NCBI GenBank assembly: GCA_963665235.2
Contig: CAXXLX010000001.1
Coordinates: 3,776,001-3,840,000, forward strand
DNA: 64,000 nucleotides
Reading direction: 5' to 3'
From: Candidatus Poribacteria bacterium
GTDB taxonomy: Bacteria > Poribacteria > WGA-4E > WGA-3G
In this document: piece by piece, positions 411 to 4,429 of the stretch
Position numbering within the stretch: position 1 is the stretch's first letter
How the letters are laid out: the number at the start of each line of letters is the position of its first letter
Translations under genes and position numbers: made by a program
The notes under the pieces: model-generated
What the model saw: only the letters and a program-made list of their open reading frames with translations
Database searches by the model: none
Told to the model about the DNA's origin: nothing

Positions 411-680
411 AGAGAAGAAAGAAAAGAAATATAAGAGAAGAAACCTCTTTGTTTTCTTCCTCTTGCTAAAGGTTTCCATAGGTTTCCAACTGCCATTGTC
501 GGATTGGACTTCGTTCAACCCAACCTACAAGGACAGCTAAGTAGCAACTTGAGTTATATTAGCAGATTAAAAAAAATGTGTCAAATGAAAATTAAACGGA
601 CTATAAAATTATGCTTGCAGGAAAATTGGAGGTGTGTTATTATCGATTAAAATCACATCCGTAAAGTTGGAAAAGTCGCT

Positions 681-2627
681 ATGCATATCCAAGGGCACAA
701 TCACAAGGCTGCGTACCACACCGTCGTATCTACTCCCAACGGCAGAATTGGCGAGCTACGGCTTAGCACAAATAACCGTAAACTGACTACACCCGCTATT
801 TATCCTGTTATCAGCTTCCTGACCGGGACAAGTCCACGTGGCGGGGGCATCTGGAAATATCTCCTCCGCGATTTTATGCAGCGTGACTATCAGATGTTGT
901 CACAGGTCCTGCACTTTCTGGATTTTAACTTCACCGGAAAATATCTCGCGAACTGGCGGAAAAAGTCGATGCGGGAAAATTACCGCGAACAGAACGGTGA
1001 TTACAAAGGTACCCTCTTTTTGGATTCAGGGGGATTCAAACTCCTTTACAATGCTGGTTTAGAATTGTCGGAATTCGGAATTCATAAGGAGACAGAGGCG
1101 GACGATATACTCGCTTTGCAATTAGATTTTGGTGGGGATATCGTTGCCTCGTTGGACTACCCGCTTCCGCCAAATCTGGTACGTGCCGAAGCTGATATCC
1201 GTATGGCACAGAGCTTGCAAAACGCAATCCGAGCTGCAGAACTATTGACCGACAAAGCAGATAAACCTCCGTATCTTTATATCTGTTGTCATGGACAATC
1301 TCAAGAGGATATCAGCAATTATACCGCTCAAGTCTTCGAACAGGTTGGCGATAAATTGCCCTCCTTCGGTCTTGCTGTCGGGTCGCTTGTGCCGCTGCGG
1401 GGACGCGACGATTCAGCTGTTATGGAACGTATCCGAGGGGTTGTCGAGGCAATACCGGAAGCGCGTCGTGACACTACGCCTATTCACGCGTTCGGAGTCT
1501 CTGGGGTGCTGACACCTGTGCTTGCATACCTTGGCGTGGATAGCTTTGACAGCACTACCTATATCCAAACTGCACGCAGCCTGTTTTATGCACAACCAGA
1601 CACGCAGCGAAAACTCAAAATCCTTGAGATGGATACGATAACTTGTGATTGCTACGTCTGCCAGCAATACCCGCTTGACGAAATGCAACAAGCCCTGATG
1701 GAAGAACAGAGTTATCAGGTCACGTCAACTGGGAAGTATAAGAGCGAATACTATGCGGCGATTGCCCTACACAATTTTGAGATGGAAACCCGGATGCTTG
1801 CGGAAATGTGTGAAGGGATTCAGGCAGATGACGCAGTGGAAGCGTTGGCAGAACACATCGGCAAATATCAACACAACCGCGGCACCCACGAAGCGATAGG
1901 GTGGCTTGCCGAAAACGATACTGAACTGGGAATTCGATTGACCCGCACCTTAATTCATAACCCAACACGCAAGGAAAAGATTTTTCGCGACCCAAATCAG
2001 TTGGAGCTCTTCTCGCTGGACTATGAGACCCCTGAAAATGCAACGACGCTTATAGCGGAAGATGCTACGGAGACCATCTCATTATCGTATACCCCCGATG
2101 ATTTTAGTGTTCCTGCCGATTACGAACCGCCTGCCGATAAAAATATACTTTTGGTGATTCCGTGCGCGGGAAAGAAACCGTATTCCCTTTCACGAACACA
2201 CACGATTGTTGCTAAAAAATTAGTAGCGGTTTTCGGGGAAAAACAGCAGCATATCCACAAGGTCACACTCTCCGGACTCTATGGCCCTGTTCCAGCAGAA
2301 TTTGAGACCGAGGAGGCGGTCACACGCTACGATTTTCAGTTGTCTCCGCACAACGGTGCACAAATTGAGCTGTGTACGAAACGATTACTCGCTTATCTCG
2401 AAAAATATGGCACGTCTTACACGTTATGTGTCGGTTATGCAACGAGCAGGGCATATCGGGAGGTAATGTCCCTCGCTGAAAAGCGGTATAGACGGTTCAT
2501 TTTAATGCCGAAATCGTTAAAACAGAAACGGTTGTCTGAATTCTTTAGACACGCCCATTTGGATGCTTTGGTTGAATTGATACAGGAGAAGGGGGAAATT
2601 GAAGGCAGTGACAGCACAAGCGAATAG
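681..2627 (+). CDS. tRNA-guanine transglycosylase-like (arcTGT/DpdA-type) domain fused to ArcS/DUF5591 domain
   Basis: TGT motifs DSGGF, LDYP, GSLVP, HAFG, GVDSFDS and Zn site CDCxxC...H; C-terminal PCAGKKPYSLSRTH matches ArcS motif PCX3KPYX2SX2H. Confidence 0.8.
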   Translation: MHIQGHNHKAAYHTVVSTPNGRIGELRLSTNNRKLTTPAIYPVISFLTGTSPRGGGIWKYLLRDFMQRDYQMLSQVLHFLDFNFTGKYLANWRKKSMRENYREQNGDYKGTLFLDSGGFKLLYNAGLELSEFGIHKETEADDILALQLDFGGDIVASLDYPLPPNLVRAEADIRMAQSLQNAIRAAELLTDKADKPPYLYICCHGQSQEDISNYTAQVFEQVGDKLPSFGLAVGSLVPLRGRDDSAVMERIRGVVEAIPEARRDTTPIHAFGVSGVLTPVLAYLGVDSFDSTTYIQTARSLFYAQPDTQRKLKILEMDTITCDCYVCQQYPLDEMQQALMEEQSYQVTSTGKYKSEYYAAIALHNFEMETRMLAEMCEGIQADDAVEALAEHIGKYQHNRGTHEAIGWLAENDTELGIRLTRTLIHNPTRKEKIFRDPNQLELFSLDYETPENATTLIAEDATETISLSYTPDDFSVPADYEPPADKNILLVIPCAGKKPYSLSRTHTIVAKKLVAVFGEKQQHIHKVTLSGLYGPVPAEFETEEAVTRYDFQLSPHNGAQIELCTKRLLAYLEKYGTSYTLCVGYATSRAYREVMSLAEKRYRRFILMPKSLKQKRLSEFFRHAHLDALVELIQEKGEIEGSDSTSE

Positions 2628-3801
2628 GGAAATTCTGAACTATTTTTTACCGCCACGTATTGAATTCGGGGCAGGGGCCATCGCCAATTTAGGGAAACAC
2701 GTGAGGGCTTTCGAGGGTGAGAAGCCGCTTGTCGTTAGCGATGCGGGTCTCCGTGAAGCGGGAATATTGCGTCAAGCTGTTGCTCCCTTGGAAGCGGCAA
2801 ATCTACACTACGCCACCTATACGGAGATTGAACCGAATCCTACAGATGTGAGCATCACGCCGGGGGTTGAGGTCTATCGGGCAGAAACGTGTGATGTCAT
2901 CATCGCTGTCGGCGGGGGGAGCGTTATGGATGCTGCTAAAGCTATCCGCCTTTTGACTACGCATGACCCGCCACTGGCACCCTATTATGTGGACTCGGGT
3001 GGTGTTAGCCGGATACGCGACGATATGCCGCCGCTTATCTGTGTGCCGACAACAGCTGGCACGGGTAGTGAAGTGTCACAAGGCGCGGTGATTACGGATA
3101 CCTCACGGCAGACGACGAATCGATGGCGGAAACGCGCCTTTGTTACGCCTTTCAACATGGCGAATCTCGCTCTTCTTGACCCGATATTAACGGTTGGGAT
3201 GCCTCCGATGTTGACCGCTGCTACCGGCATGGATGCGATTACGCACGGAATTGAGGCTTATGTGGCGACAAAATATCACCCTATCGCTGAAGGTGTTGCG
3301 CTGATAGCCTTAAGAATGTTGGGCGCGAATATCCGAAAGGTGTCCCACGATGGCGAAGATGTTGTTGCACGCGGGGAGATGTTGCTCGCAGCATGTATGG
3401 CAGCGTTCGCATTTCAAAAAGGACTTGGGGCTGTTCACTCAATTGCACATCAGTTATCGACAGAAGCCCCTATTCCGCACGGTGTAGCGAACGCTATTCT
3501 GTTACCGCATGTCATGACGTTTAATTTGCCTGCCGTAACTTCGAAGTATGCGGATATCGCTGCGGCGTTGGGCGTTAATACCGCGGGTATGTCCGCAGCG
3601 GAGGCGGCGCGCGCGGCAATTGATGAAATCCGGGAATTAAATGTGCAGCTGAATATGCCCGCAGGTCTGGGTGCGGCAGGCTTGGCAAAGGCACGACTTC
3701 CGAAAATAGCAGCGGATTCTATGCTCGATCACTGTTATAAATTTAATCCAAGACCGTGTACGGAACAGGATATGCACAATCTGCTTGTGGCAGCATTCTG
3801 A
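2599..3801 (+). CDS. Iron-containing alcohol dehydrogenase
   Basis: GGGSVMDAAK, PTTAGTGSE, GMDAITHGIE, HSIAH, PHGVANA motifs; exact start uncertain. Confidence 0.92.
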   Translation: MKAVTAQANREILNYFLPPRIEFGAGAIANLGKHVRAFEGEKPLVVSDAGLREAGILRQAVAPLEAANLHYATYTEIEPNPTDVSITPGVEVYRAETCDVIIAVGGGSVMDAAKAIRLLTTHDPPLAPYYVDSGGVSRIRDDMPPLICVPTTAGTGSEVSQGAVITDTSRQTTNRWRKRAFVTPFNMANLALLDPILTVGMPPMLTAATGMDAITHGIEAYVATKYHPIAEGVALIALRMLGANIRKVSHDGEDVVARGEMLLAACMAAFAFQKGLGAVHSIAHQLSTEAPIPHGVANAILLPHVMTFNLPAVTSKYADIAAALGVNTAGMSAAEAARAAIDEIRELNVQLNMPAGLGAAGLAKARLPKIAADSMLDHCYKFNPRPCTEQDMHNLLVAAF

Positions 3802-3845
3802 ACGTTGCGATGTGCTGCACCAGTTCATCTTCTGAATTTTACTAA

Positions 3846-4246
3846 TACCATTTTTATTAATTATTCTATCATTACCGGTTGTTAGAAATGAAACGGAGAA
3901 CAGCACAAACTGGAAGTTTATGCTACAATAAAGAGCACAAACTGGAAGTTTATGCTACAATAAAGAGCACAAACTGGAAGTTTATGCTACAATAAAGAGC
4001 ACAAACTAAAAGTTTATGCTACAATAAAGAGCACAAACTAAAAGTTTGGCTCATGTTAAAGATGTGTGCGATTGTTCTAATAAACGCAATGGCCACAAGG
4101 GTTAAATTTTCTTATGCACTTATTCTTTACATGAGCCAAAAGTTTATGCTACAATAAAGAGCACAAACTGGAAGTTTATGCTACAATAAAGAGCACAAAC
4201 TAAAAGTTTATGCTACAATAAAAAGACATTTTCAATTAGAAATGGT
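3846..4246. mobile_element. MITE family A (TACCATTT...AAATGGTA, 3-bp TAA target duplication) carrying seven 32-bp hairpin repeats, one interrupted
   Basis: Terminal inverted repeats; same ends at 20525-20768 and 50773-50935; unit gcacaaactggaagtttatgctacaataaaga. Confidence 0.8.
4048..4137. mobile_element. 90-bp MITE with GGCTCATGT(T)AAAGA inverted ends and 8-bp target duplication AAAAGTTT (ISL3/IS1595-like), nested in MITE A
   Basis: AAAAGTTT at 4040-4047 and 4138-4145; removing the insert restores an intact 32-bp unit. Confidence 0.85.
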
Positions 4247-4429
4247 ATAACTTTGGACAATTCAAGGGGATAGGTGGAAGGGTGGAAGATTAGATTTCGT
4301 GTTTTTTGTCTGAATCGCGGATTATCGCGGATTACACGGATTACGCGGATTTTTTTAAGGTGTGTATGCGTCAAGGTTTTGTGATTAAGTTGCGTTTTTT
4401 TGTCTGTCTGAATCGCGGATTACACGGAT

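Follow-up and report, generated by a model that had tools for sequence, protein, structure and literature searches.

In a stretch of 64,000 nucleotides (nt) from the genome of a Candidatus Poribacteria sponge symbiont (C1:3776001-3840000; hereafter the window) the forward strand carries, at positions 681-2627, an intact open reading frame (ORF) of 648 amino acids (aa; translation table 11). It encodes a protein, here called P0001, in which a tRNA-guanine transglycosylase (TGT) domain is followed by DUF5591, the C1 domain of the archaeosine synthase ArcS. From its sequence, we lean towards regarding P0001 as a single-chain enzyme that modifies nucleic acids with 7-deazaguanine in two steps, belonging to an uncharacterised family of bacteria and haloarchaeal plasmids. 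That one protein might both insert 7-cyano-7-deazaguanine (preQ0) and convert it had been proposed in a first-pass annotation of the window. The residues concerned are conserved in both domains, whereas activity, target and product we infer.

Full-text searches of the literature on DUF5591, ArcS, DpdA and DUF6884, with the supplements of PMC10516641, PMC6884629 and PMC12839542 outside the search, returned no paper describing a TGT-DUF5591 protein without PUA domain from bacteria or haloarchaeal plasmids, and the fusion can thus still be taken as not characterised. These supplements (ArcS similarity networks, Alignment S5, and locus tables of BREX-related capture, or BRC, systems) may list members of the family.

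Domain structure and active-site residues

Pfam places the TGT domain (PF01702) at residues 107-396 of P0001, with 64 bits against a cut-off of 26.3, and DUF5591 (PF17884) at residues 480-602, with 50.6 bits against a cut-off of 26. No PUA domain, no TGT_C2 and no further Pfam domain was matched at E<=1, and the absence of PUA noted earlier is thereby confirmed. About 80 residues (397-479), partly helical and partly disordered, separate the two matches. Within them, residues 397-459 form the most length-variable part of a 29-member family alignment. The features of the gene are as follows, motif coordinates having been placed by script:

711..1868 (+): the complete catalytic domain of TGT type, residues 11-396, N-terminal beta-strands included (Pfam, AlphaFold2, Foldseek)
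1023-1037 (+): DSGGF, residues 115-119; aligns with DSGSF of 1iq8
1152-1163 (+): LDYP, residues 158-161; aligns with LDIP of 1iq8
1374-1397 (+): pocket loop AVGSLVPL, residues 232-239; GSLVPL aligns with GGVVPL of 1iq8
1539-1553 (+): DSFDS, residues 287-291; GVDSFDS aligns with GVDLFDS of 1iq8
1644-1661 (+): CDCYVC, residues 322-327; aligns with CSCPVC of 1iq8
1644..1772 (+): Zn site Cys322, Cys324, Cys327 and His364, the latter within LHNF (conservation, 1iq8 alignment)
1869..2057 (+): helical extension (397-435), then a disordered linker (436-459) (AlphaFold2)
2118..2591 (+): DUF5591 (ArcS C1-type) catalytic domain, residues 480-637 (Pfam, NCBIfam, PDB 2q07)
2160-2201 (+): PCAGKKPYSLSRTH, an exact PCX3KPYX2SX2H, residues 494-507, with Cys495, Lys499, Tyr501, Ser504 and His507
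2268..2294 (+): LSGLYGPVP, the second conserved C-domain motif (conservation; paired by hhalign with LSAxxG of DUF6884/DpdC)

All TGT hallmarks and the pocket loop were found by script where the first-pass annotation had seen them, and they align with the archaeal TGT (arcTGT) of P. horikoshii (1iq8; phmmer E 3e-16). The C-domain motif, defined in PMC10516641 and PMC5699537, likewise lies at identical nucleotides. On the basis of these alignments Asp115 is the equivalent of Asp95 of ArcTGT and DpdA, the general acid/base, and Phe119 that of Phe99; Asp159 is the counterpart of Asp130, which reads the base edge, and Asp290 that of the nucleophile (Asp249 in ArcTGT, Asp256 in DpdA). The three active-site aspartates are described as invariant in TGTs and DpdA, with roles assigned to the nucleophile and the acid/base (PMC10164549). 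The pocket loop is of the archaeal type, as had been supposed, and lacks a Glu of the bacterial TGT (bTGT) type; a rule for telling preQ0 from preQ1 pockets is given in PMC5699537.

An AlphaFold2 model of P0001 built from 59 relatives (pLDDT 92, pTM 0.90) has a full barrel from residue 11, helices at 400-435 and a compact alpha/beta C-domain, with pLDDT below 50 at residues 436-459; the chain ends about 10 residues past the last C-domain helix. In the structural comparison that had been suggested, Foldseek put ArcTGT (1j2b and 1iq8, E 7e-20, identity 21-22%) on top for the model of P0001; TGTs of bacteria and eukaryotes came next. When the C-domain was modelled by itself (pLDDT 88.5), its single significant fold neighbour in the PDB was the DUF5591-PUA protein AF0587 (2q07, E 8.5e-6), which P0001 also matches by sequence (E 0.0018). 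Together with the Pfam match this bears out the assignment of the C-domain to DUF5591.

In a metatranscriptome run (X8) two contigs, 786-1152 and 1398-1601, lie inside the P0001 gene. They give a weak hint of its transcription, contigs of an RNA library being no proof.

The TGT-DUF5591 family

A word-indexed search with P0001 returned 491 matches, the best 120 of which all carry both TGT and DUF5591. An exhaustive search of cluster representatives gave 568 matches at E<=1e-3 and 101 at E<=1e-30; besides many full-length forms at 30-47% identity, the 568 include N-only and C-only ones, part of them perhaps fragments. Databases name the members 'tRNA-guanine transglycosylase' or '7-cyano-7-deazaguanine tRNA-ribosyltransferase', and the former name probably misstates the role of these proteins.

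Conservation was judged from two alignments, of 29 diverse full-length members and of 59 members, with 27-71% identity to P0001. Invariant in 29 of 29 are D115, S116, G118, D159, P161, H269, G272, G285, C322, H364, N365, P500, Y501, G535 and P538. At least 90% conserved in the same set are D287, D290, C324, C327, K499, S504, G234 and S235 and, in the second C-domain motif, S531, G532, P536 and V537. The larger alignment agrees for most residues, with D159 and P161 invariant (59/59) and C495 and D290 conserved to at least 90%. The motif cysteine is absent in three of the 29. Since residues of both domains are invariant or nearly so, both active sites are under selection, and for the same reason the motifs in P0001 are not chance matches.

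Two members, P0163 (880 aa) and P0187 (847 aa), carry a second, degenerate DUF5591-like repeat behind the first. In a further protein, P0213 (481 aa), the C-domain is matched twice and the N-domain is missing. Apart from the family, an ESM Atlas cluster under the name 'DpdA', with 57 proteins about 590 aa long, matches DUF6884 in 72% and TGT in 51% of its members, with Planctomycetota as the commonest phylum among members with a record; if both domains lie on one chain, this cluster would be a DpdC-DpdA fusion paralleling the TGT-DUF5591 fusion.

A quick maximum-likelihood tree, midpoint-rooted and with several long branches flagged, was calculated from 62 dereplicated full-length members, after 45 cluster members shorter than 560 aa had been dropped and near-copies of at least 90% identity merged. 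It contains a haloarchaeal clade of 33 rows, 29 of them with a module of DpdC-like, TGT and GHKL genes, and a bacterial clade of 23 rows in which the Poribacteria are nested. The Poribacteria and a sister group with housekeeping neighbours adjoin branches found in DpdH-like, DISARM, GmrSD and YhhQ contexts.

Comparison with known enzymes

P0001 stays below the cut-off of every NCBIfam model that it matches:

Archaeosine synthase alpha (NF040592): 84.9 bits; cut-off 440
ArcTGT (TgtA, TIGR00432): 82.7 bits; cut-off 350
NF053620: 43 bits; cut-off 600
Bacterial Tgt (TIGR00430): 30.5 bits; cut-off 306.75
DpdA (NF041059): 17.8 bits; cut-off 200

ArcS is described as consisting of a TGT-like N-terminal domain (Nt), C1 (DUF5591), C2 and PUA, and the phage or viral ArcS2 as C1 alone (PMC10516641). 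A TGT-like domain before DUF5591 is the ancestral ArcS layout, and that of P0001 is therefore not wholly new. The earlier view that its architecture lies outside the known ones holds for the intact TGT domain and for the lack of C2 and PUA, and fails for the order of domains, in which ArcS itself is alike. What is new, as far as sequence can tell, is the complete TGT domain with intact catalytic residues along with the loss of C2 and PUA.

With ArcS (TgtA2, NF040592; Euryarchaeota) P0001 shares C1/DUF5591 with the exact PCX3KPYX2SX2H and a TGT-derived domain N-terminal to it. In ArcS the first 70-130 residues of ArcTGT, with Asp95, Ser96 and Phe99 among them, are reported to be missing, and measured against this description P0001 differs in keeping DSGGF, the three aspartates and the full barrel (PMC4770233). 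Because of the retained TGT domain P0001 is not an ordinary ArcS. It also has no C2 or PUA, has the linker of about 80 residues, does not reach the equivalog cut-off of the ArcS model, which its C-domain matches over model positions 288-406, and has in its own genome no match to TIGR01210, which we take to be RaSEA.

ArcTGT (1iq8/1j2b) is the best match in structure and among PDB sequences, and its catalytic residues, Zn site and preQ0-type pocket align. P0001 has a linker and DUF5591 in place of the C1, C2 and PUA of ArcTGT. Bacterial queuosine-type Tgt is more distant: its model is matched far below the cut-off, the P0001 pocket aligns with GGVVPL of arcTGT, and in BLAST the N-domain has no significant similarity to the Tgt of its own genome (E 4.1). 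This agrees with the earlier placement of the N-domain apart from queuosine-type bacterial TGTs. A haloarchaeal stand-alone TGT, by comparison, is matched over nearly the full length (E 5e-37, 26-27% identity) and a DpdA-like protein of Poribacteria with E 3e-17.

A parallel in predicted activities is the pair DpdA2 + ArcS2 of Vibrio phage nt-1, a preQ0-inserting TGT without PUA and a DUF5591 enzyme consisting of C1 only, which are reported to make dG+ in E. coli plasmids (PMC10516641). Here both would reside on one polypeptide, and in cellular genomes and haloarchaeal plasmids.

The bacterial Dpd system comprises the TGT-like DpdA, the ATPase DpdB, DpdC (DUF6884, YaaA-like) and DpdD-K. P0001 resembles DpdA in being a TGT without PUA and with the aspartate triad (equivalents of Asp95/Asp130/Asp256), and its relatives adjoin DUF6884 genes, a second TGT, an ATPase, helicases, PLD genes and a DpdH-like protein. 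It differs in its low DpdA score and the absence of a PADLOC hit for DpdA. Further, no ParB-like DpdB was seen in the loci examined, where the ATPases are of GHKL or BrxD type, the predicted nitrile-modifying domain is the fused DUF5591 and not DUF6884, and dpd-type neighbours occur only partly and in distant relatives, no island surrounding the Poribacteria copy. TGT homologues, sometimes fused to GNAT, are also reported from BRC systems (2026, PMC12839542).

A relation between DUF5591 and DUF6884 is suggested by hhalign, in which the family's C-domains match DUF6884/DpdC proteins with a probability of 78% (E 1.7e-5), pairing PCSxxKPY with SCSxTK, LSGLYGPVP with LSAKxGLI, and YD with YD. DUF6884 is given as the DpdC domain in a preprint (PMC11888242), and its signature is described as CxxxK + LSAxxG, with base flipping proposed (PMC11701544). 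DUF6884 (PF21818) itself has no Pfam match in P0001. We hold it as a lead that ArcS C1 and DpdC form one superfamily acting on the preQ0 nitrile.

Genomic context of distant relatives

Neighbouring genes were clustered over a set of 88 loci without dereplication, of which 8 were genomic and 80 metagenomic. A GHKL-type ATPase occurs in 43 of the 88 and a 153-aa DUF6884 (DpdC-type) protein in 37, with a 414-aa stand-alone TGT between the two genes in the loci examined. Genes for preQ0 supply are present as well (QueD in 18, QueC in 18 and QueE in 16 loci). A 977-aa neighbour matches DpdH at its N-terminus (71.7 bits), and DrmB of DISARM is found near some relatives. Elsewhere the gene directly upstream codes for a YhhQ/Vut_1 precursor transporter, accompanied by genes for a 936-aa protein of the phosphodiesterase family and an AAA ATPase. 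Loci of others hold GmrSD_N with HEPN, or a 1370-aa DEAD helicase with a PLD-like protein, and the contexts of the family also include PglZ-like genes, beside the Dpd-like, DISARM-adjacent and GmrSD/HEPN ones.

When plasmids were searched by tblastn, the group of fused proteins at 31-35% identity was haloarchaeal. On a Haladaptatus plasmid two fused copies adjoin genes for DUF6884, a TGT, an ATP-binding protein, an AAA protein of 1493 aa, a DEAD/DEAH helicase and a PLD protein, and on a Natrinema megaplasmid a single copy lies among DEAD/DEAH helicases. A separate DpdA-like TGT is nearly always present in the haloarchaeal islands. Taken together, the Dpd-like and defence contexts of the relatives point to DNA modification.

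Proposed mechanism and target

In the first step, as the conserved residues suggest, the N-terminal barrel would flip out the target guanine; Asp290 would attack C1' and guanine would leave, with Asp115 acting as general acid/base and Asp159 reading the base edge. The arcTGT-like pocket (GSLVP, no bTGT-type Glu) would admit preQ0, supplied by the cell's own queD, queE-like and queC genes. In the second step, by homology to ArcS C1 and phage ArcS2, the tethered DUF5591 domain would act on the 7-nitrile of the inserted base through Cys495-x3-Lys499-Pro-Tyr501, Ser504, His507 and LSGLYGP. For the product we envisage an amidine of the G+ type or some similar derivative, for instance an amide or a lysine adduct. 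For M. jannaschii ArcS the use of ammonium, Asn or Gln is reported (PMC11298593).

As target we favour DNA, the modified base serving as a self or epigenetic mark. This preference is based on the occurrence of relatives from two domains of life in defence islands, Dpd-like and other, on the lack of the tRNA-binding C2 or PUA, on linked preQ0 supply genes, on the extra plasmid-borne paralogue of haloarchaea and on the report of dG+ for phage DpdA2 + ArcS2. It is least certain for the Poribacteria gene, because this stands alone among metabolic genes.

According to the published accounts, 7-deazaguanines in DNA have been met in phages (dPreQ0, dADG, dG+, dPreQ1 and others) and with bacterial Dpd islands (dPreQ0, dADG). 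It is conceivable, though we would not count on it, that the DNA of Poribacteria, related bacteria and haloarchaeal megaplasmids itself contains a 7-deazaguanine of G+ type or another new one derived from the nitrile, for which a single polypeptide would insert preQ0 and convert it with no need of a DpdB-type ATPase. If so, the base would be the self-mark of Dpd-like restriction in the defence islands and an orphan epigenetic mark in Poribacteria. ArcS C1 and DpdC would then represent one superfamily of base-flipping enzymes on the preQ0 nitrile. The fused proteins, as a conserved cellular family, would be the first candidates for writing an archaeosine-type base anywhere but in archaeal tRNA and phage DNA. 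As a compact single gene, the fused enzyme lends itself to an easy heterologous test.

The main competitor of a DNA-modifying enzyme, to which we give a minor but real share of probability, is that P0001 acts on tRNA or other RNA, inserting preQ0 at a guanine and then converting it, as arcTGT and ArcS do at G15 of archaeal tRNA. The closest curated models and structures are indeed those of tRNA enzymes (ArcS-alpha with 84.9 bits, TgtA with 82.7 bits, 1iq8/1j2b). ArcS is reported to accept substrates down to the preQ0 nucleoside, so C1 chemistry would be possible without PUA-bound tRNA (PMC11298593); by the title of one paper PUA is dispensable for ArcTGT.

Several observations weigh against the two-step DNA enzyme, part of them in favour of RNA. 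As bTGT acts on tRNA without PUA, the lack of this domain does not exclude a tRNA target. Identity among the Poribacteria copies tracks taxonomy (64-71% within a family, 57-63% within an order), a pattern that resembles vertical inheritance of a cellular gene and would be expected of an RNA-modification enzyme. The gene has metabolic or housekeeping neighbours in its own genome and in the nearest relatives; in the relatives L022, L024 and L025 (49-50% identical) these are an MsbA-like ABC transporter, sigma-70, Lon and DprA. No restriction partner was seen among the neighbours of the Poribacteria gene, and PADLOC gave no hit for P0001. Phages seem not to carry the gene: tblastn against 50,697 phage records gave no match at E<=1e-3, and among 32 pattern matches in a scan of viral contigs none was a relative, for the queries used. 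A phage origin of the fused gene was rejected for this reason. As to the chemistry, T. kodakarensis ArcS is reported to need RaSEA (PMC11298593). TIGR01210 has no match in the own genome (92.6% complete), and three euryarchaeal control genomes pass its cut-off. The own queC (C1:3470074-3470720) is read in two overlapping frames (ORFs of 195 and 111 aa); either the long-read assembly contains a frameshift error here or queC is broken, which bears on preQ0 supply. YaaA was not recovered by Foldseek for the C-domain, so that the link to DpdC comes from hhalign alone. Finally, the separate DpdA-like TGT in the haloarchaeal islands means that the fused N-domain might not insert the base there.

Against an RNA target, in turn, speak the missing C2 and PUA and a patchy distribution: strong copies are found in 40 of 121 sampled Poribacteria genomes, with 0/32 in genus g2, 11/44 in g3, 4/4 in g8, 6/8 in g9 and 11/14 in g10. 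For queuosine the cell is already provided with a canonical Tgt and QueF. The haloarchaeal fused genes lie on plasmids, within islands of helicase, PLD and DpdC-like genes, and other relatives are linked to DISARM, DpdH-like and GmrSD genes. The DUF5591 match of a haloarchaeal control genome fits a separate canonical ArcS, which makes the fused family an extra paralogue there and not the tRNA enzyme.

Alternatively, P0001 might have only an ArcS2- or DpdC-like activity, with the N-domain as a binding module for a 7-deazaguanine already in place and insertion left to a DpdA-like enzyme or Tgt, which we regard as fairly improbable. The TGT-derived N-domain of canonical ArcS is described as having no transglycosylase function (PMC10516641, PMC4770233), 29 of the 33 rows of the haloarchaeal clade have a separate DpdA-like TGT beside the fused gene, and the own genome has an operon with DpdA-like, BrxD-like and DUF6884 genes elsewhere. 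But the nucleophile, the general acid and the base-reading Asp are kept throughout the family together with the full barrel, whereas canonical ArcS is reported to have lost the Asp95/Ser96/Phe99 region, and of the 40 Poribacteria genomes that carry the fused gene just 7 have a DpdA-like gene as well, the other TGT in most of the 40 being the preQ1-type Tgt only.

A target other than nucleic acid, either a protein as for Cap10 of CBASS or a 7-deazapurine small molecule exported by the ABC transporter neighbouring some relatives, is very improbable: TGT-family protein deazaguanylation is reported (preprint 10.1101/2025.04.06.647259), Cap10 is weakly matched by sequence in the PDB (9ntn, E 0.016) and an MsbA-like ABC gene directly follows the homologue in L022 and L024, but the Cap10 match is marginal and that to ArcTGT far better, no QueC-like Cap9 or CD-NTase was found among the neighbours scanned, the ABC gene beside sigma-70 and Lon looks like ordinary housekeeping synteny, and known DUF5591 chemistry acts on nucleoside-linked preQ0 and not on the free base.

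The host genome

The own genome comprises 5.3 Mb on four contigs; it and the eight closest genomic loci are all from Candidatus Poribacteria metagenome-assembled genomes (MAGs). The genome-wide search that had been recommended located a canonical Tgt (C1:2609893, 544 bits), QueC, a tandem-domain QueD, QueF, a QueE-like radical-SAM gene and an operon with DpdA-like and DpdC-like genes, all outside the window. It had been claimed that the window holds neither dpdBC nor folE/queCDE. This is correct for QueC, QueD, QueE-like and DUF6884, for which, as for QueF, every own-genome match lies outside C1:3776001-3840000, while FolE and DpdB were not searched.

The operon just mentioned is a tight group of six genes on the minus strand (C1:1786065-1791325; locus L103:10065-15325), coding for a DUF6884/DpdC-like protein (147 aa), an unknown protein (147 aa), a PIN-like protein (359 aa), another unknown protein (306 aa), a BrxD-like ATPase (390 aa) and a DpdA-like TGT (399 aa). 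In appearance this operon is a compact Dpd-like module for modification or defence, and an undescribed one. Its DpdA-like TGT has a strong match in 13 of the 121 Poribacteria genomes, at 64-71% identity irrespective of family. A dependence between this operon and the fused gene was considered and rejected: 7 of the 13 genomes have the fused gene and 6 do not, at a base rate of 40/121.

TGT and DUF5591 matches on contig C4 do not represent a second paralogue. They belong to a haplotig of the window region, 99.2-99.6% identical, into which a repeat of about 1.25 kb is inserted and whose fused gene has a gap of one base. The repeat (C4:10428-11691) is present in at least five copies of at least 99% identity on C1 and absent at the matching C1 site; it is probably an active insertion sequence (IS) element.

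Neighbouring genes in Poribacteria

Downstream of the P0001 gene the window contains

2599..3801 (+): iron-containing alcohol dehydrogenase gene (Pfam Fe-ADH + ADH_Fe_C), which overlaps or abuts the 3' end of the P0001 gene

and this gene is probably co-transcribed with that of P0001. The other neighbours comprise three dioxygenases of PhyH type, two oxidoreductases of GFO/IDH/MocA type, a sulfatase and a MoxR ATPase, with Fic and Uma2 genes upstream. The adjacency of Fe-ADH is common only to the four closest Poribacteria loci (L001-L004), and a conserved operon partner in Poribacteria was therefore rejected. The neighbours in L005-L008 are different (class-III aminotransferase, cyclophilin and a KamA-like radical-SAM gene), and for the KamA-like gene no link to RaSEA was found.

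In one of the closest loci (L001:5430-7629, Poribacteria MAG OY282383.1) a D12-class N6-adenine DNA methyltransferase and a 442-aa GNAT protein are encoded directly upstream of the orthologue. The GNAT neighbour, seen in this one locus only, recalls the GNAT/TGT pairing of BRC systems.

The gene pair is flanked by repeats. At 400-556 and 3843-3900 of the window contigs from public runs reach a depth that exceeds that of the intervening gene by a factor of tens to hundreds, and the two segments, on either side of the TGT-DUF5591/Fe-ADH pair, are probably multi-copy intergenic repeats of the lineage. A joint from 546 to 3842 in run X1, skipping 3295 bases, was dismissed as repeat noise, its shorter side having only 24 letters and the joint lying in high-depth repeats. 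Just downstream of Fe-ADH, at 3882-4257, 32-nt units follow each other head to tail (spacing 32 nt, no spacers) in two blocks parted by a 31-nt imperfect inverted repeat, and the unit recurs on the C4 haplotig.

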